From Spirochaetaceae bacterium (GTDB lineage Bacteria > Spirochaetota > Spirochaetia > DSM-2461), in NCBI GenBank assembly GCA_050031985.1, contig JBNAIG010000018.1, positions 28,781 to 92,780 on the forward strand: DNA of 64,000 bases, in the 5' to 3' direction. Below are positions 21,807-55,013 of this stretch, in pieces. The notes under the pieces are model-generated. The model saw nothing but the letters and a program-made list of their open reading frames with translations. It was not told the origin of the DNA and made no database searches. Made by a program: the position numbers and the translations under genes. Positions within the stretch are counted from its first letter, which is position 1, and each line of letters opens with the position of its first letter.

Positions 21807-21822
21807 TGGCACAGCTTATGCA
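21807..21822 (+). promoter_or_regulatory. Sigma-54-like promoter upstream of hsp20
   Basis: TGGCAC-AGCTTA-TGCA, with GG and GC at canonical spacing. The -12 element is aTGCA (one mismatch). About 125 nt upstream of ATG 21946. Confidence 0.55.
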
Positions 21823-21945
21823 TTATAAGTCGGTGTAAGAGGCGCTTGTAAAAGAGCCGCCTGGGAAGGGTTCCTTTCCCAAGGCTTTTCTGCAAGCCCC
21901 TCAAAAAATTAAATGATCGTGCCAAAGGGCACCATGGAGGATGAT

Positions 21946-22380
21946 ATGAACTATATGGTAACAAGAAACAGAGTAAACGACGTGGACAGACTTTTCGATT
22001 CTTTCTTTAACTGGAATGAAGCACCCAAGACTGCCGCATCCCGCGTACCCGCTGTGGATATCACCGAATCGGAAAAGGGTTATGAAATCGTAGCTGAACT
22101 TCCCGGATTTTCCGAAGAGGAACTGGATCTTCAGGTTAAGGATAATCTCCTTACCATAACCGCCGAAAAAATGGAAAAGGCAGAAAAGAAAGACGAAGCC
22201 GATGAGGTACGCTACCTTAAGAGGGAAAGATCGGTAAAATCTTTTAAGAGGAGCTTTTACCTTCCCAAGGACGCTACCAATGAAAGTATCGAAGCGGTAT
22301 TCAAGAATGGGCTCTTGAGCCTGTCCATCGCCAAGAAAGAGGAGGCCAAGCCTATGGCAATTAAGGTGAAAACCAAATAA
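21946..22380 (+). CDS. Hsp20/alpha-crystallin family small heat-shock protein
   Basis: ACD-domain motifs (VDITESEKGYEIVAELPGFSEEELDLQVKDNLLTI...SFKRSFYLPKDA...KNGLLSLSI). Start chosen at ATG 21946 with GGAGG 7 nt upstream (track ORF begins at 21913). A sigma-54-like promoter lies upstream and a strong terminator downstream. Confidence 0.85.
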   Translation: MNYMVTRNRVNDVDRLFDSFFNWNEAPKTAASRVPAVDITESEKGYEIVAELPGFSEEELDLQVKDNLLTITAEKMEKAEKKDEADEVRYLKRERSVKSFKRSFYLPKDATNESIEAVFKNGLLSLSIAKKEEAKPMAIKVKTK

Positions 22381-36496: not shown

Positions 36497-37726
36497 ATGT
36501 GGGAAACGTTTTTTTTCGTCTTTTTGATTATGGGGGCCGGTTGGACTATTTCCGGTGTGGGAAATTTAGTTCTAAAAAACCGGGAAAGAGAAAAGGGAAA
36601 ATCCGCTGCCCTTTTTGTCTTGGTGGTCTTCTTTCTTAATATTCTGGACAATCTTATCCGTCCCGGTGTCTTTAGCCGGGAGTTTGCAGAGGCGATTTAC
36701 CACTTTAGCCGGCCCAGTTATCTATTAGTCGGCCCGGCCTTTTTGTTTTATGTACGGGCTCTTTTGAGGGAAAAGGGGGCTTTTAAATTTTCTACGGCCT
36801 TTCATTTTATCCCTTTTACCTTAGGGTTAATTCATTTTCTTCGTTTTCCTTCTACCTTACATCCTGAGATAAAATTCGCCTCCGATAACATCAATGCAGG
36901 TCCTGCTCTCAACATGGACTCTCCTCCTGTAGCACCGCTTACCGGCTTTGATTTTCATTGGGATTTCTGGAAGAATATCTCCCTCATAGCCTATACGGTC
37001 GTTGTCCTTTTTCTCATCTATCGGCATAGAAAAAGAGTTCCCGACCTCTTCTCGTCCCTGGATAAATACACAACCCTCTCCTGGTTCCAGTATTTACTCT
37101 TCTTTTACAGTGGGATTTATATTATAAATATGGTTCTCCACACCCTTTTACCGGATAGTTCTCCGATTCATCAGGCTTCCATGGCATTGGTCCGTGTCCT
37201 TCCTCCTGTGGGTTTTGTTTTTTTCTTCTCTCTTTTTTCCGGCATACAACAAGTACGGGTCCCTCTTCCGGAAGCGTCCCCTGTATCGACGGGATGCCCA
37301 AAGGAAAGCCTCCCCGTAACAGAAGAAAAAAAAGAGAAGAAATACGAGAAATCGGGAATGGGGATTGAAGAGGTCCGCGAACTTTTTCAGCAGTTAAAGG
37401 GCTACCTGGAAGAGGAAAAATCCTACCTTGATCCCGAACTCACCCTGGAGGAGTTGGCGAACCTTATGGGAGAAACCCGCCACCGCCTTTCGGAAGTTAT
37501 CAACCGGGAGTCGGGGGACAAGTTTTACCGTTTTATTAATCATTATCGCCTGGAAGAGTTTAAAAGCGCCATCGAAGAAAACCGTTTTCCCGATTACACT
37601 ATCCTGGCGGTTGCCTTTGAGTGTGGGTTTCGTTCCCAGTCAGCCTTCTATAACCTTTTTAAGAAGGAAGAGGGGATGACCCCCCGGGCCTACGTCCTCC
37701 GGGTAAGTGAAAAAGAAGCAGGTTAG
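36497..37726 (+). CDS. Membrane-anchored AraC family transcriptional regulator
   Basis: Multi-TM N-terminal half. C-terminal LTLEELANLMGETRHRLSEVINRESGDKFYRFINHYRLEEFKSAIEENRFPDYTILAVAFECGFRSQSAFYNLFKKEEGMTPRAY is an AraC HTH. Same architecture as the paralog at 18459..19568. Confidence 0.75.
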   Translation: MWETFFFVFLIMGAGWTISGVGNLVLKNREREKGKSAALFVLVVFFLNILDNLIRPGVFSREFAEAIYHFSRPSYLLVGPAFLFYVRALLREKGAFKFSTAFHFIPFTLGLIHFLRFPSTLHPEIKFASDNINAGPALNMDSPPVAPLTGFDFHWDFWKNISLIAYTVVVLFLIYRHRKRVPDLFSSLDKYTTLSWFQYLLFFYSGIYIINMVLHTLLPDSSPIHQASMALVRVLPPVGFVFFFSLFSGIQQVRVPLPEASPVSTGCPKESLPVTEEKKEKKYEKSGMGIEEVRELFQQLKGYLEEEKSYLDPELTLEELANLMGETRHRLSEVINRESGDKFYRFINHYRLEEFKSAIEENRFPDYTILAVAFECGFRSQSAFYNLFKKEEGMTPRAYVLRVSEKEAG

Positions 37727-37729
37727 AAA

Positions 37730-39205
37730 TTAAATCCCCAGTTTCTTCATACGGCTCTGTAGGGTCGTCGGCTTCATGTCCAACAGCTCGGCTGCCCCGT
37801 TTTTTCCGTAAATCTTTCCCTTCGTTCGTTCAAGAGCGGCTTTGATATGTCCCGCCATAGCCTCATCCAAGCTAGGGAAGGCTCCCTCCTTTTCCGGCGG
37901 GGCTAACTGTGGGAGGGACTTGTTCGGGTTTCCCCCCTCCAGGGAGAGATGCTTCCTTCCTATAGAACCGCCGCCGGCTATCAATGCCGCTCGACGGATC
38001 ACATTCTGCAACTCCCGTACATTACCCGGCCAATCGTGGTTTAAGAGGGACTGCACTCCGTCGGAGGAGAGATTGACTCCGGGATACTTTCCGCTTGTTC
38101 GTATTTGATCCAGGAAATGCTCCGCCAAAAGGATAATGTCCTCCCCCCGTTCGCGCAGGGGGGGCAGGCCAATGGGAAAGACCCCCAGGCGGTAGTAGAG
38201 GTCTTCCCTAAAGCTTCCTTTTTCTACAGCCTCTTTGAGGTTCACGTGGCTCGCTGCAATGACCCGTACATCGGTACGGAGGGTTTTCTCGCCGCCCACC
38301 CGTTCAAAGCTGCCCTCCTGAAGGGTGCGGAGAAGTTTGGGCTGCACCTCCGGAGGCAGGTCTCCAATCTCATCCAGAAAAAGTGTCCCCCCGTGGGCCA
38401 GTTCAAAGCGTCCTTTTCTCTGGGTTACCGCCGAAGTAAAGGCTCCCTTCTCATGACCGAAGAGTTCGCTTTCCGCCAGTCCCGCAGAAAGGGCGGAGCA
38501 ATTTAGGGCAATAAAAGGCCGGTCTCGACGGGTGCTGAGCCGGTGGATTAGCTGGGCGGCTTGTTCCTTTCCCGTTCCCGTTTCTCCCTGTATGAGGACG
38601 GGCAGGTCTGAGGCGGCCACTGTTCGAATTAGCTCCAGAACAATATTCCAGGCGGGGGATTCTCCAATCACGGAACGAAACTCCTCGGCTCGTTCCGTGA
38701 GCAGACGGTTTCTCTCCTCCAGGAGGCTTTTTTGCTGACTCAGAAGGTAACTCGAGGCATCGCTTTGGGAAAGGATGATTTCTATCATGCGGGAGATGGT
38801 GCCCACAAAACGGATGATTTGGGGGGAAAACATATGACACTGCCTGTGATCCAGAGTGAGAAGACCGATGGGAGCCCCTTCGCTGTGGAGAGGGGAAATA
38901 AGGCAGGAGTGGCCGTTGGGCATATCCAGAATCTCTTCGTAAGTGTCTTCGTGGTCGTCTTCTTCGGGGAAAAGGTAGGGTTCGGGGTAGTTGAGTTTTT
39001 CCGCCATATCCCGGCGAAGGCCCAGGTTTATGGAATAATCCTTCATCTTTTCATTTTTTAGGGGGCCCATGGCTTTTTGTACGGTAAGGGTGGAGTTGTC
39101 CGTTTTTTTGAGGATAACCGCCAGTTCGTAGTCGACGATGTCATTCAGGGCCGTCAAAATCAGTTCAAGAACACTGTCAATGTTGATGGGGACGGGAGTA
39201 TTCAT
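37730..39205 (-). CDS. Sigma-54-dependent transcriptional activator (GAF sensor, AAA+ sigma-54 interaction domain, Fis-type HTH)
   Basis: [15 protein letters not shown] (Walker A), GAFTSA (GAFTGA-like motif), [10 protein letters not shown], and a C-terminal HTH. The N-terminal about 170 aa are GAF-like. Confidence 0.85.
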
Positions 39206-39227
39206 AGGGTGCCTCCATAGAGTGCTA

Positions 39228-39258
39228 ACGATATACCGTTATATGACGATATATCGTT
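39228..39258. promoter_or_regulatory. Inverted repeat AACGATATA-N13-TATATCGTT, candidate activator (UAS) site
   Basis: Perfect 9-bp arms, about 110-140 bp upstream of the sigma-54 -24 element and 23 nt upstream of the activator gene start. Confidence 0.5.
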
Positions 39259-39312
39259 GATAATCTACCGGTATTTCGGTTACTGGTCAAGGGGAAGAAG
39301 ATGGGCGATATA

Positions 39313-39358
39313 TTGAAAACTATATAACTCCATGTATAGAAGAGATATATAGTTTTCA
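39313..39358. promoter_or_regulatory. Inverted repeat TGAAAACTATATA-N20-TATATAGTTTTCA next to the sigma-54 promoter
   Basis: Perfect 13-bp arms ending 10 nt upstream of TGGCAC. Possible repressor, IHF or second activator site. Confidence 0.45.
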
Positions 39359-39367
39359 GTATAAAAC

Positions 39368-39383
39368 TGGCACACCCTTTGCA
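39368..39383 (+). promoter_or_regulatory. Sigma-54 (-24/-12) promoter upstream of the peroxiredoxin gene
   Basis: TGGCAC-ACCCT-TTGCA is an exact match to the TGGCAC-N5-TTGCW consensus. It lies 38 nt upstream of ATG 39421, divergent from the sigma-54 activator gene. Confidence 0.8.
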
Positions 39384-39420
39384 ATATAGAAAGCATAAAA
39401 CAGTAAAGGAGATTTTTACA

Positions 39421-40068
39421 ATGGAAGATAACAAGATTAACATGCCCCTCTTGGGAGATGATTTCCCCGAAATGACCGTTAACACCACCCACGGTGTCAT
39501 GAATATACCGGGAGACCTTAAAGGCAGCTGGTTCGTGCTGTTTAGTCATCCCGCTGACTTTACCCCCGTTTGTACCACCGAGTTCGTAGGCTTCCAGAAT
39601 AAGGTTGCCGAGTTTGACGAAATGGGTGTTAAGCTAATCGGTATGTCCGTAGATCAGGTCTTCAGCCACATTAAATGGGCCGAATGGATCAAGCAAAAAC
39701 TGAATGTGGAAATCACCTATCCTATCGTGGCCGCCAACGATTCGGTAGCCAATAAGCTGGGAATGCTTCATCCGGGCAAGGGAACCAATACGGTTCGTGC
39801 TGTTTTTGTTGTCGACCCCCAGGGAAAGGTAAGACTGGTTCTTTACTATCCCCAGGAAATCGGCCGAAACATGGACGAAGTTGTTCGTGCTGTTAAGGCT
39901 ATGCAGGTATCCGACGCCAATGGTGTGGCCATGCCCGCCAACTGGCCCGAAAATGACCTGATTGGTAATAGAGTCATCATTCCCCCCGCATCCACAATGG
40001 AAGACGCGGCTAAGAGGCTTGATGAGTACGAAGGTTACGATTGGTGGTTCTGCCATAAAGAACTTTAA
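39421..40068 (+). CDS. Peroxiredoxin (1-Cys Prx/Prx6-like)
   Basis: [18 protein letters not shown] peroxidatic Cys motif. Start chosen at ATG 39421 with AAGGAG upstream (the track ORF begins at 39379, inside the promoter). Preceded by a sigma-54 promoter. Confidence 0.85.
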
Positions 40069-40080
40069 TATATAAGCTAT

Positions 40081-40122
40081 CGGCCCAGTCTGCTTTACTA
40101 GAGACTGGGCCGGTGTTATATT
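40081..40122 (+). terminator. Hairpin terminator/attenuator between the peroxiredoxin gene and pepT
   Basis: Perfect 11-bp stem CGGCCCAGTCT...AGACTGGGCCG with a 10-nt loop, followed by the U-rich GUGUUAUAUUG. Confidence 0.6.
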
Positions 40123-48144: not shown

Positions 48145-49064
48145 TGAACGAGCTCACCGGGGGAATCAGCCCCGACATACTGACCCACTTTTCCCTTCTC
48201 ATCTATTCTCTTTCATTTGCCATGTGTTTTGCCGCTCTGGCTCTTTGTATTGCCTGTTGGATCAAAGAAAAGGAGACCTGGCAGTACAAGACGATTCTTT
48301 TTATTATCTACTTTACCTTTCTTTTCTTTCTCGATGCCATCTATTTTTACTACACCCATATAATGTCCTACTCCGAGGGGGGATGGTATTTTGGGCTTTT
48401 CCTTATTATTCGAGATTTGGGTTATGCCCTGCTACTTTATTATATGGGGGCGACACTTAACTATATTCGCCGAAAGAAGTGGAGCCACTTCCAGTTATCC
48501 CTGGTTATTTTAGGGGGAATCTTCTACTTTGCCGGTTCTGTTGTGGACCGTTATACCGGTTCTCCTCTTTACCTTTCGGCAGCCATGTCTCTTCTTCTTT
48601 TTGGGGTACAGGCCTATCTACTGGCCAACAGTGCCCGGGATATAAAGCATGTTTCGGAGGTGCGTTTGCGTATCTCCCTCATCATAGTTTTTCTTGTTCC
48701 CCTGATTTTCCTGCCTCTTATCCTGATTTTCCGGTCCCTCATGCCGGAGAGACAGGCTTTGAACTTTATTGTTCTGAGTCAGTTTTACTTTTGGCTCTCC
48801 CTGGGGGCGGTCATCTATTTTCTCCAGCCTTTGGCCCTTCATCGGAGCGGAGGGGGGTTGAATTTGTCCCGGGAGAACAGGGATAAGTTCGGACTGACCG
48901 AACGGGAGGCCCAGATTATCAGGGGAATCGACCGGGGACTTTCCTACAAGGAAATCGCCGGGGAACTGGATATCTCTCCCAATACGGTGAGTAACCATAT
49001 AACCCGTATCTACCGAAAAACGGGAATCCGTTCCAAGGTGGAACTACTCAAAAAACTGCAATAA
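48144..49064 (+). CDS. Membrane-embedded LuxR family transcriptional regulator (about 8 TM with C-terminal LuxR HTH, no receiver domain)
   Basis: C-terminal LTEREAQIIRGIDRGLSYKEIAGELDISPNTVSNHITRIYRKTGIRSKVELL is a LuxR/FixJ-type HTH. The N-terminal 240 aa are polytopic. Confidence 0.7.
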   Translation: MNELTGGISPDILTHFSLLIYSLSFAMCFAALALCIACWIKEKETWQYKTILFIIYFTFLFFLDAIYFYYTHIMSYSEGGWYFGLFLIIRDLGYALLLYYMGATLNYIRRKKWSHFQLSLVILGGIFYFAGSVVDRYTGSPLYLSAAMSLLLFGVQAYLLANSARDIKHVSEVRLRISLIIVFLVPLIFLPLILIFRSLMPERQALNFIVLSQFYFWLSLGAVIYFLQPLALHRSGGGLNLSRENRDKFGLTEREAQIIRGIDRGLSYKEIAGELDISPNTVSNHITRIYRKTGIRSKVELLKKLQ

Positions 49065-53873: not shown

Positions 53874-54275
53874 CTACTTTCGGCAGTCCCCACAGATTCC
53901 CCAGACGTAAACATGGCTTGATTCTCTCCGGAAGCCTTCCGGAAGAGTTCCCATATCTGCACTACTTAAGGGAAAGTCAAAAACCTTACCGCAGCGGCGG
54001 CATTTGCAGTGACCATGGTCGCTTGTATCTCCGTCAAAACGAACCTCATCCCCGTCGATTGTAAGGGCCAGGGCAAGTTGTTTTTCCGAGAATAGCTTTA
54101 AGGTATTGTAGAGGGTCGTTTTGGAAAGACTGGGCATTTCCGGGTGTAGGCTGGAGTAGATCATCTCCACGGTCGGGTGGTTTTTATGAGAACTGAGATA
54201 CTGATAAACAGCTAATCTTTGTTGAGTAGCGCGAATCCCTTTCTCTTCAAGAATCTTTTTTGTTTCCACCATCAT
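53874..54275 (-). CDS. Fur family transcriptional regulator (PerR-like)
   Basis: RATQQRLAVYQYL...HPTVEMIY winged helix, and a HGHCKCRRCGKV...CGDC metal-binding Cys/His cluster. Adjacent to the rubrerythrin gene. Confidence 0.8.
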   Translation of the reverse strand: MMVETKKILEEKGIRATQQRLAVYQYLSSHKNHPTVEMIYSSLHPEMPSLSKTTLYNTLKLFSEKQLALALTIDGDEVRFDGDTSDHGHCKCRRCGKVFDFPLSSADMGTLPEGFRRESSHVYVWGICGDCRK

Positions 54276-54321
54276 AATTGCCGGGGGAATCGAATAGGAT
54301 TCCCCCGATCCTCCTTATATA

Positions 54322-54867
54322 TTAGGCAAAGTATCGCTTAAGGAGTCCCAGAAAGGCAGAACCGTGGCGGGCTTCATCCTTACACATCTCATGTACTGTA
54401 TCATGAATGGCATCGTAACCCAACTCCTTGGCTCTTTTAGCAATGTGAAGTTTTCCTTCCGTAGCGCCCCTTTCGGCTTCTACTCGAAGTTCCAGGTTCT
54501 TCTTGGTATCGGCATGGACCACTTCTCCCAGCAGCTCGGCAAATTTGGCAGCATGCTCTGCTTCCTCAAAGGCTATTCTTTTGTATGCTTCGGCTACTTC
54601 GGGGTATCCTTCTCTGTCGGCCTGTCTACTCATGGCAAGGTACATTCCTACTTCGGTACATTCGCCCATGAAATTTTCTCTAAGTCCCTGTACGACTTCT
54701 TTGTCCAGTCCCTGAGCTACTCCTATTTTGTGAGCGTCAGCCCAGACAATACCGTCGATTCCCTGAGACTTATCGAATTTCTCTTTAGGAGCGTTACACT
54801 GAGGACACTTCTCCGGAGCTTCGGGACCTTCATAGACATAACCGCAAACAGAACAAACCCATTTCAT
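54322..54867 (-). CDS. Reverse rubrerythrin (N-terminal rubredoxin-like domain with ferritin-like diiron domain)
   Basis: [31 protein letters not shown] (CxxC...CxxC rubredoxin) followed by a four-helix-bundle diiron region (E..H pairs). Start at 54867 with AAGGAG upstream (the track ORF extends to 54966). Confidence 0.85.
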
Positions 54868-54908: not shown

Positions 54909-54923
54909 TTGTAATGATTACAA
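54909..54923. promoter_or_regulatory. PerR/Fur-box-like 7-1-7 palindrome upstream of the rubrerythrin gene
   Basis: TTGTAAT-G-ATTACAA is a perfect inverted repeat of the 7-1-7 Fur/PerR box architecture (compare TTATAATnATTATAA). It lies 42 nt upstream of the rubrerythrin start, within an AT-rich promoter region. Confidence 0.55.
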
Positions 54924-55013
54924 AGTTATAACGATTGCAAATAATAGTCAATAGTCTAAAAAACATGAAAATATAATGAAAAAATGATATTTGTCTTGCT
55001 ATAATGGGGGGGT

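Follow-up and report, generated by a model that had tools for sequence, protein, structure and literature searches.

A gene for a peroxiredoxin (prx) in a Spirochaetaceae genome lies back to back with a gene for a sigma-54 activator that carries a GAF sensor domain. This arrangement raises the question of whether peroxide defence is controlled here by sigma-54 and such an activator, and which signal the activator would report. We analyzed the locus within a stretch of 64,000 nucleotides (64 kb), referred to below as the window. The prx gene (39421-40068, forward strand) encodes 215 amino acids with the Pfam domains PF00578 and PF10417 (1-cysPrx_C). Its product scored 353.5 bits against the NCBIfam equivalog PRK13189, for which the cut-off is 211. 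The peroxidatic Cys lies in the motif FTPVCTTE and a C-terminal Cys in WWFCHKEL, and both motifs are visible in the alignment to the structure 3w6g. The nearest solved structures are archaeal peroxiredoxins from Pyrococcus, Thermococcus and Aeropyrum (3w6g, 6itz and 2e2g). By its sequence, the product is assigned to the archaeal-type peroxiredoxins of the Prx6 subfamily. A ribosome binding site (AAGGAG, 39407-39412) precedes the ATG at 39421. Following the prx stop codon is a GC-rich hairpin (40079-40114, forward strand; RNA fold of -29 kcal/mol, z = -6.5). We consider it a probable terminator, in which case prx would be monocistronic. The T-tract of this hairpin is weak. The M20 peptidase gene downstream of prx has a sigma-70-like site of its own (40094-40122).

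The sequence-only reading had placed a sigma-54 promoter of the form TGGCAC-N5-TTGCA before the peroxiredoxin gene, and we recovered it. The site is TGGCACACCCTTTGCA (TGGCAC-ACCCT-TTGCA) at 39368-39383 on the forward strand, and it ends 37 nt before the prx ATG. Nowhere else in the 64 kb does TGGCACN5TTGCW match exactly. The -24 GG (39369-39370) and -12 GC (39381-39382) have canonical spacing, and with an upstream enhancer and a putative cognate activator the site has the features of a sigma-54 promoter. Transcription of prx is predicted to start near 39394.

An inverted repeat with 9-bp arms had also been described upstream of this promoter. The arms exist (AACGATATA at 39227-39235 and TATATCGTT at 39250-39258), starting one base from where they had been placed. 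They do not form a palindromic site of their own; rather, they belong to two of three tandem boxes of the form ACCG-N6-CGGT. Box 1 (AACGATATACCGTT, 39227-39240) matches at 6 of 8 positions, and its position and spacing are kept in relatives. Box 2 (GACGATATATCGTT, 39245-39258) is 18 bp from box 1 and holds a perfect 12-bp palindrome, ACGATATATCGT. Box 3 (ACCGGTATTTCGGT, 39267-39280), overlooked in the first reading, is the best match (8/8); it lies 22 bp from box 2, and about 95 bp separate its centre from the -24 GG downstream. The three boxes match the published enhancer motif of PexR from Myxococcus xanthus, CACCG-n6-CGGTG, which is likewise present in three copies (Bastida-Martinez et al., Nucleic Acids Res 2025, PMC12754779). 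Another 8/8 box occurs at 48547, inside a 306-aa ORF. Given this position and the lack of an adjoining sigma-54 site, we rejected it as a regulatory site and took it as a chance match.

The activator gene (37730-39205, reverse strand) is divergent from prx and encodes a putative PexR-like sigma-54 enhancer-binding protein of 491 amino acids. Pfam matches in this ORF agree with the GAF-AAA+-HTH order first proposed for it: GAF (PF01590/PF13185), Sigma54_activat (PF00158, 231 bits), AAA_lid_14 and HTH_8 (PF02954). The protein is 100% identical to one from an NCBI “Spirochaetales bacterium” MAG. The GAF sensor domain and a signalling helix span residues 1-170 (38696-39205, reverse strand), with H85, D87, H99, C101 and D119 as candidate metal ligands, together with H120 and C123. 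Residues 179-345 (38171-38671, reverse strand) form the sigma-54 interaction and AAA+ ATPase domain (PF00158), with the Walker A motif GETGTGKE and a GAFTSA loop, which is the commonest loop variant among the activator homologues (57 of 120). The C-terminal Fis-type HTH (PF02954) covers residues 453-489 (37739-37849, reverse strand). An AF2 model (pLDDT 86) is consistent with this domain order, and its AAA+ domain matches those of FleQ and NtrC1 with an rmsd of about 2.2 A. Sequence and fold searches of the PDB returned no solved relative of the GAF domain and matched the AAA+ domain alone.

A sigma-70-like promoter for the activator gene, TTGACC-17-TAGATT, was identified by consensus match only at 39262-39290 on the reverse strand, with box 3 in its spacer. 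The promoter-proximal box is bracketed in the same way by a sigma-70-like activator promoter in three related loci (L005, L023 and L031). Such bracketing occurs in 15 of 72 loci in the activator direction vs. 3 in the opposite (prx) orientation. Because box 3 sits inside the activator's own putative promoter, autorepression is likely.

We compared the locus with 80 related loci from other species; in 70 of these, a sigma-54 promoter faces away from the activator gene. The family promoter consensus, yTGGCACG...TTGCW, extends to positions outside the selection criteria. Boxes matching at 7 or more of 8 positions numbered 118 in the 69 scored loci, compared with 1.45 in shuffled sequences and 3 in coding DNA, and gave the consensus (C)ACCG-AWATWT-CGGT(G). 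Three boxes are present in 41 of the 70 loci, with modal spacings of 16-18 and 22-23 bp, and the proximal box lies a median of 93 bp from the -24 element. The window thus has the modal family architecture, with its three boxes spaced by 18 and 22 bp. In a screen confined to peroxide- and iron-defence classes, the gene or operon directly behind the promoter belonged to these classes in 68 of the 70 loci (Prx, Dps, catalase, KatG, rubrerythrin and ferritin-like proteins). Prx targets account for 57 of the 70 loci, in addition to catalase and KatG. Dps or ferritin-like targets stand alone in about eight loci and occur in operons elsewhere. Divergent activator-target pairs were found in Spirochaetota, Desulfuromonadales, SAR324, Ignavibacteria, KSB1, Calditrichota and Rhodothermaceae. 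Cultured carriers include Malonomonas rubra DSM 5091, Desulfuromusa kysingii DSM 7343 and the spirochaete Rectinema subterraneum. No boxes, promoter or Prx adjoin the activator orthologues of Treponema putidum and certain other Treponema loci (L027, L035, L044 and L045).

The December 2025 description of PexR (MXAN_1565, UniProt Q1DC06), from an obligately aerobic myxobacterium, presented it as the first H2O2-sensing sigma-54 activator and hinted at homologues in four further phyla (PMC12754779). For M. xanthus PexR only, H2O2 is known to release the metal in vitro and to induce the system in vivo (PMC12754779). Two PexR-clade proteins, P0202 and P0133, recognized by a 7/7 match to the published residue-number fingerprint, stood in for the M. 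xanthus sequence in our comparisons. The activator shares 40% identity with P0202 over the full length (E 9e-115). The P0202 locus has AhpC, three CACCG-N6-CGGTG boxes and TGGCAC-N5-CTGCT. Like PexR, the activator is a GAF/AAA+/HTH group III enhancer-binding protein divergent from a peroxiredoxin gene; its three tandem dyads share the PexR sequence and precede a sigma-54 promoter, and in other loci the regulon also takes in catalase and Dps. The recognition HTH is nearly the same in P0202, but not in NorR.

The two systems also differ. The activator's identity to the PexR-clade proteins (40% overall and 22-29% in the GAF domain) is under the range within which the PexR authors called homologues, 47-48% overall and at least 51% for the GAF domain within Myxococcota (PMC12754779). 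The loop reads GAFTSA here vs. GAFTGA in PexR. PexR has AhpC-AhpD as its target, whereas here an archaeal-type Prx takes this place and AhpD is lacking. Measured from the centre of the last box to the -24 GG, the enhancer is about 95 bp from the promoter here and about 40 bp in the PexR-clade locus L086. Unlike at ahpC, a forward-strand consensus scan found no box-overlapped sigma-70 promoter on the target side, so the repressor half of PexR is not evident at prx. The hosts, Spirochaetota and other largely anaerobic phyla, are outside the list in the PexR paper. Judged from sequence comparison, the locus is a divergent member of the PexR kind in phyla absent from that paper. Control of prx by sigma-54 and a GAF activator, as the sequence-only reading proposed, is strongly backed by the PexR precedent and by the same arrangement, promoter and boxes in about 70 species, but with PexR published this logic is no longer unprecedented.

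The candidate metal pocket is strongly conserved within the activator's own clade. Across 35 relatives, D87, H99, C101, D119 and C123 never vary, and conservation of H85 and H120 is 90% or higher; the ligand motif H-x-D-T-Y...H-S-C...D-H..C occurs in 104 of 120 homologues. H99, C101 and D119 align, with identical spacing, with H120, C122 and D140 of P0133 and P0202, and C123 corresponds to C144 of PexR; the H-x-C...D core and later Cys are thus shared. The first His ligand appears to be displaced. With the fingerprint-identified PexR-clade proteins as reference, the position of PexR H102 is occupied by D84/E81 and not by His. The conserved H85 follows four residues later, two residues before the invariant Asp instead of six, in a loop that is 3-4 residues shorter. 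In addition, the conserved H120 of the activator clade stands where the PexR clade has Arg. At 22-29% identity to P0202/P0133 and 20% to NorR, the GAF domain is about as far from the PexR clade as from NorR, so signal specificity cannot safely be transferred.

In combination, these results lead us to consider the locus quite probably a PexR-type peroxide-defence switch. The observed basis of this model is the anatomy of the locus, the conserved candidate ligands, and a promoter, boxes, spacing and target class that are shared by about 70 species; metal binding, the peroxide signal, GAF inhibition and the ATP-driven step are modelled on PexR and NorR. The activator, produced from its own sigma-70-like promoter and probably limiting its own synthesis through box 3, would occupy boxes 1-3 (about -160 to -120), probably as dimers. 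At rest, the GAF domain would hold Zn2+ or Fe2+, presumably via H99, C101, D119 and the His of the preceding acidic loop (H85), and would block the AAA+ ATPase. Peroxide attack on the metal centre would cause loss of the metal and relieve the block. The AAA+ ring could then reach RNA polymerase-sigma-54 at TGGCAC-N5-TTGCA through looping of the AT-rich intervening DNA, and ATP hydrolysis would open the promoter, giving a monocistronic prx mRNA from near 39394. A redox signal, NO and a small molecule had all been named as candidate signals. We favour peroxide, acting through a Zn/Fe centre, over NO, given the conserved regulon of Prx, Dps, catalase, KatG and rubrerythrin, the kind of classes to which the target screen was confined.

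We considered whether the sigma-54 motif could be fortuitous, with prx transcribed from an ordinary sigma-70 promoter without the neighbouring activator. One 16-nt match alone is weak evidence, and the 64-kb window contains no detected RpoN-box ORF and no detected further activators. This explanation is nevertheless very improbable. By an estimate from the count of specified bases, only about 0.06 exact matches are expected per 64 kb, yet 70 species have the motif in the corresponding position, and the agreement extends to bases that played no part in the selection. A consensus scan of the forward strand found no sigma-70-like site upstream of prx. Moreover, hsp20 in the window is preceded by another sigma-54-type promoter, which has upstream repeats of its own; this indirectly supports the presence of rpoN in the genome. 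If the switch is instead real but responds to NO through a NorR-like activator, several similarities would be accounted for. NorR, the NO sensor of norVW, has the same domain order, divergent genes and three enhancer sites. The NCBIfam NorR model NF003451 aligns with the activator over nearly its full length (370.8 bits), and E. coli NorR (b2709) shares 36% overall identity with it. The GAF metal pocket likewise has an aligned Asp, His-x-Cys and Asp: NorR D96, H111, C113 and D131 correspond to the invariant D87, H99, C101 and D119. Peroxiredoxins also reduce peroxynitrite. The iron ligands of NorR, as reportedly assigned by Tucker et al. in 2008, are R75, D96, D99, C113 and D131, and the types of these residues were checked on the E. 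coli protein. In the activator, however, R75 aligns with D66 and D99 with the variable E90, so the NorR ligand set is incomplete. The score is also below the 476-bit equivalog cut-off, neither the HTH nor the enhancer sequence is that of NorR, and the boxes follow the PexR motif. NorR targets norVW and hmp, whereas all targets classified, from 68 of 70 loci, belong to peroxide or iron defence, the only classes screened, and include no known NO-detoxification gene. Thus, although the PexR paper allows that PexR itself might also sense NO (PMC12754779), we regard a NorR-like NO sensor as unlikely.

The GAF domain could alternatively report Fe or Zn availability rather than peroxide, with the metal-free form active under limitation. 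PexR ligand mutants that lose metal are constitutively active, as is a GAF deletion (PMC12754779), and Dps and ferritin-like targets are frequent in the family. Most targets are peroxide scavengers, which would make little sense under metal limitation, and H2O2 itself strips the metal from PexR, so we see only a slight chance that metal availability is the signal. More scope exists for a second input to prx at another inverted repeat, at 39309-39363. Its perfect 13-bp arms (39314-39326 and 39346-39358, separated by 19 nt) had already been noticed in the sequence-only reading; at 91% complementarity they reach 22 nt. Arms of this length were reached in 0 of 2000 shuffles, and as single-stranded DNA the repeat folds strongly (-12.2 kcal/mol, z = -7.6). 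None of the 69 other loci has it, and this includes L005, the closest relative, whose activator is 73% identical. The palindrome is therefore not due to chance, but it is specific to one genome among 70 loci and is not a member of the enhancer. We rejected its arms as degenerate PexR boxes (4/8 matches by eye). Architectural proteins act between enhancer and promoter at sigma-54 promoters, and the palindrome is centred near -59, between the two. It might be the operator of a second regulator, or a bending or cruciform element that replaces an IHF site, and either would add a second input to prx. We hold this to be possible but doubtful: the repeat is missing even from L005, no further copy of the 13-bp arm was found within the 64-kb window, the palindrome is unlike the PerR-type box described below, and we identified no candidate binding protein.

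The PexR-type switch that we favour may operate beside a second oxidative-stress circuit. A PerR-rubrerythrin pair had been noted 15 kb from prx, and we confirmed a Fur-family gene (53874-54275, reverse strand) paired with a rubredoxin-rubrerythrin gene (54322-54867, reverse strand). A sequence scan located a perfect 7-1-7 box of PerR type, TTGTAATGATTACAA, at 54909-54923, and none at the prx promoter. Both the window and the reported co-occurrence of PexR and PerR-rubrerythrin (PMC12754779) would fit a PerR-rubrerythrin circuit acting in parallel. The prx switch would resemble textbook PerR and OxyR control in that scavengers are induced by peroxide via a metal or thiol sensor. It would differ in using sigma-54 and an ATPase, unlike derepression by PerR or sigma-70 activation by OxyR.

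Tentatively, the activator may be more than an isolated PexR orthologue and represent a separate and widespread metal-GAF branch of largely anaerobic lineages, which kept the DNA specificity and regulon of PexR but rebuilt the pocket (His-x-Asp...His-x-Cys...Asp-His). The PexR type would then be a third broad class of peroxide regulator beside OxyR and PerR. The trigger in this branch may differ (O2, organic peroxides or Fe2+ status), and the palindrome may add a second input in this genome. The finding reveals no new principle, as the regulatory logic was already known from PexR. The module, defined by its motif, three-box architecture and peroxide-defence targets, extends the PexR type to spirochaetes and other anaerobe-rich phyla and allows sequence-defined prediction of peroxide regulons in uncultured anaerobes. 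Its diverged sensor pockets provide a natural series for the residues that set the specificity of PexR for H2O2 vs. that of NorR for NO.

Two divergent genes, for a 491-aa activator (37730-39205, - strand) and a 215-aa peroxiredoxin (prx, 39421-40068, + strand), flank the intergenic region 39206-39420. As the sequence-only reading had proposed, the activator is of the GAF-AAA+-HTH kind, with Pfam GAF, sigma-54 interaction AAA+ (231 bits), lid and Fis-type HTH domains; it is 100% identical to an annotated protein of an NCBI "Spirochaetales bacterium" MAG. The peroxiredoxin passes the NCBIfam PRK13189 equivalog cut-off (353 vs 211 bits). Its nearest solved relatives are archaeal-type peroxiredoxins from Pyrococcus, Thermococcus and Aeropyrum, with which it shares the FTPVCTTE peroxidatic Cys and a C-terminal WWFC motif. 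The sigma-54 promoter predicted before prx was confirmed as TGGCACACCCTTTGCA at 39368-39383 (+ strand), the sole exact TGGCAC-N5-TTGCW match in the window. It ends 37 nt before the prx ATG, and an AAGGAG ribosome-binding site lies between the two. Given a strong hairpin 3' of the prx stop codon (-29 kcal/mol, z = -6.5) and a separate sigma-70-like site for the following M20 peptidase gene, prx looks monocistronic. On the other side, a membrane-anchored AraC-family regulator gene (36497-37726) is convergent with the activator gene, their stop codons 3 nt apart. It is not kept in the closest relative (L005), where a GntR gene is found instead.

Two inverted repeats had been noted between the genes, and both exist. 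However, the first is better read as a pair of neighbouring 14-bp dyads, AACGATATACCGTT (box 1, 39227-39240) and GACGATATATCGTT (box 2, 39245-39258), and a third dyad, ACCGGTATTTCGGT (box 3, 39267-39280), the best of the three, had been overlooked. The centre-to-centre spacings are 18 and 22 bp, and box 3 lies ~95 bp upstream of the -24 GG.

This arrangement resembles one published for Myxococcus xanthus (Bastida-Martinez et al., Nucleic Acids Res 2025, PMC12754779), in which PexR (MXAN_1565), an activator with GAF, AAA+ and HTH domains whose gene is divergent from ahpC, occupies three CACCG-n6-CGGTG dyads in tandem. With H2O2 as the signal, PexR switches on ahpC and katB from their sigma-54 promoters. 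Zn2+ or Fe2+ is held in its GAF domain by H102, H120, C122 and D140, the metal is released by H2O2, and both ligand mutants and a GAF deletion are constitutively active; a sigma-A promoter of ahpC is additionally repressed by resting PexR (PMC12754779). Unlike at M. xanthus ahpC, a consensus scan found no box-overlapped sigma-70 promoter on the prx side, so prx may depend entirely on sigma-54, as katB does. Box 3 falls instead within the spacer of a consensus match to a sigma-70-like promoter of the activator gene (TTGACC-17-TAGATT, 39290 to 39262, - strand), which suggests autorepression. Such an overlap, again by consensus match, occurs in 15 of 72 loci.

Homologues of the activator number in the thousands. 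Three contexts examined manually, those in Malonomonas rubra, in a further Spirochaetales MAG and in a metagenome contig with a 73% identical activator, all share ACCG-N6-CGGT dyads, a TGGCAY-N5-TTGYW site and, on the divergent side, a peroxiredoxin gene (or Dps with peroxiredoxin). Scanning one genome per species with the GAF-domain alignment as query yielded 80 loci, from Spirochaetota (Oceanispirochaeta, Treponema, Rectinema and Gracilinema) and from Desulfuromonadales, Desulfosarcina, SAR324, Ignavibacteria, KSB1, Calditrichota and Rhodothermaceae. In 70 of the 80, the divergent strand has a sigma-54-type site at a distance of 150-290 bp from the activator start codon, and the consensus of these sites (yTGGCACG...TTGCW) extends to positions unused in selection. 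Between activator start and promoter, the 69 loci scored contain 118 dyads (at least 7 of 8 positions), compared with 1.45 in shuffled sequence and 3 in equal-length coding DNA. The symmetrised dyad consensus is (C)ACCG-AWATWT-CGGT(G). Three dyads occur in 41/70 loci, the spacing has two modes (16-18 and 22-23 bp), and the proximal box is a median of 93 bp from the promoter; the window fits this modal architecture exactly. Three boxes are kept alongside a weakened -12 element in a SAR324 locus (L018, TGGCATACCCAGTGAA) and in L005 (TGGCATAGCTCTTGTA), showing natural variation in predicted promoter strength across the family.

In 68 of 70 loci, peroxide or iron defence is encoded by the gene or operon that directly follows the promoter. 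The target is the window-type peroxiredoxin in 27, a second Prx6-like type in 15 (alone), 8 (in an operon with catalase) and 2 (with a ferritin-like gene), Dps in 6, an AhpC-like peroxiredoxin in 3, and KatG with a ferritin-like gene in 2 (KSB1). Five further arrangements were each seen once: a catalase, a rubrerythrin or a ferritin-like gene by itself, and the window-type peroxiredoxin paired with Dps or with a ferritin-like gene. Regulon content varies with lineage, yet enhancer and promoter are constant. Activator orthologues (~53% identical) also occur in Treponema putidum ATCC 700334 and Treponema MAGs (L027, L035, L044 and L045). Beside these, peroxiredoxin, sigma-54 site and ACCG-N6-CGGT boxes are all absent, and the genes they control must be located at other sites in the genome. 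Based on the motif, architecture and targets shared with the published system, the enhancer motif, three-site architecture, divergent arrangement and regulon of the window's family are those of PexR.

The GAF domain served as query for an exhaustive HMMER search, which returned 180 cluster representatives. Two of these (P0133 and P0202) have H102, D108, D111, H120, C122, D140 and C144 all at the published PexR positions. The P0202 gene adjoins a divergent AhpC gene, at a locus with CACCGATATACCAGTG, AACCGCTATTTCGGTG and CACCGAAATAGCGGTG, then TGGCACCAATTCTGCT. P0202 is probably a PexR-clade protein, recognised by this seven-residue fingerprint and its locus. The window protein is 40% identical to it over the full length (E 9e-115), and its HTH is nearly the same as that of P0202 (GRIYGAGGAAAILGVPPSTLQSKMKKLGI). 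GAF identity to the PexR clade is only 22-29%, comparable to the 20% with NorR, the E. coli NO sensor. Within the window's clade, no variation is seen at D87, T88, H99, S100, C101, D119 or C123, conservation is at least 90% at H85 and H120, and the motif H-x-D-T-Y...HSC...DH..C is found in 104 of 120 homologues. H99, C101, D119 and C123 correspond to PexR H120, C122, D140 and C144. The remaining PexR ligand, H102, is without an exact counterpart in the clade, which has H85 instead, within a loop that is 3-4 residues shorter. The GAFTSA loop was ruled out as a defect, being the clade's commonest variant. Very large proteins, P0136, P0146 and P0155 among them, were also matched, with up to 10 tandem stretches resembling the GAF domain (10 in the 3346-aa P0136).

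The best-supported model is that the PexR mechanism applies to the window locus. The metal-bound GAF domain would inhibit the activator's ATPase, peroxide would strip the metal, and the activator at boxes 1-3 would then remodel RNA polymerase-sigma-54 at 39368-39383, with prx transcription starting near 39394. The parts and their conservation are documented here; metal binding, the nature of the signal and the use of ATP we infer by analogy. The sequence-only reading had listed a redox signal, NO or a small molecule for the GAF domain; of these, the conserved regulon favours peroxide, acting through a Zn/Fe centre, over NO. A NorR-like NO sensor would be consistent with the alignment of NorR D96, H111, C113 and D131 to window D87, H99, C101 and D119, but is disfavoured. 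The activator scores below the NorR cut-off, differs from NorR in HTH and enhancer, and lacks R75 and D99, which are counted among the NorR ligands and neither of which is conserved in the clade. Moreover, the classified targets (68/70 loci) are all peroxide or iron defence genes, the only classes screened. A sensor of metal limitation alone is an unlikely reading, poorly matched to the target genes.

The second palindrome has perfect 13-bp arms (39314-39326 and 39346-39358; 22 nt at 91%). It is far beyond chance (0 of 2000 shuffles reached 13 bp) and, folded as single-stranded DNA, has z = -7.6. It is unique among the 70 loci, absent even from the 73% identical relative, has no further copy within the window and is unlike the PerR-type box at 54909-54923. 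The conserved module does not include it. At ~ -59, it occupies the region used by DNA-bending proteins at many sigma-54 promoters, and it may serve an architectural role or be the operator of another factor.

The separate PerR-rubrerythrin pair reported earlier is also present, as an apparent operon of Fur-family (PerR-like) and rubredoxin-rubrerythrin genes (53874-54867, - strand). Upstream are a perfect 7-1-7 box, TTGTAATGATTACAA (54909-54923), and beside it a degenerate second copy, TTATAACGATTGCAA (54926-54940). We did not find rpoN in the window. A second sigma-54-type promoter, TGGCACAGCTTATGCA (21807-21822, + strand), precedes a gene for an Hsp20 small heat-shock protein (21913-22380) by ~90 nt, which suggests that the organism uses sigma-54. 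Two repeats 59 bp apart upstream of it, AATGACACTAGTGTGTCAAAA (21622) and AATGACTCACTTGGGTCAAAA (21681), differ from the prx boxes and resemble an enhancer for some other activator; the window encodes no matching one. In Malonomonas rubra (L002/L006, 7601-10751), two Hsp20 genes and dnaK lie directly beyond the activator gene. In combination with the hsp20 promoter, this is a hint that sigma-54 may be more widely connected with stress genes in these lineages.

The earlier proposal that RpoN and a GAF activator control prx was essentially right, given the PexR-like motif, sites and targets, but regulation of this kind had already been published in December 2025. Beyond Myxococcota, PexR homologues (48-92% identity) were listed only from Acidobacteriota, Nitrospirota, Planctomycetota and Pseudomonadota, with no mention of spirochaetes (PMC12754779). 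The window locus is a divergent member of the PexR kind, in phyla not previously listed; its sensor pocket is rebuilt, and it carries one lineage-specific palindrome outside the shared architecture.
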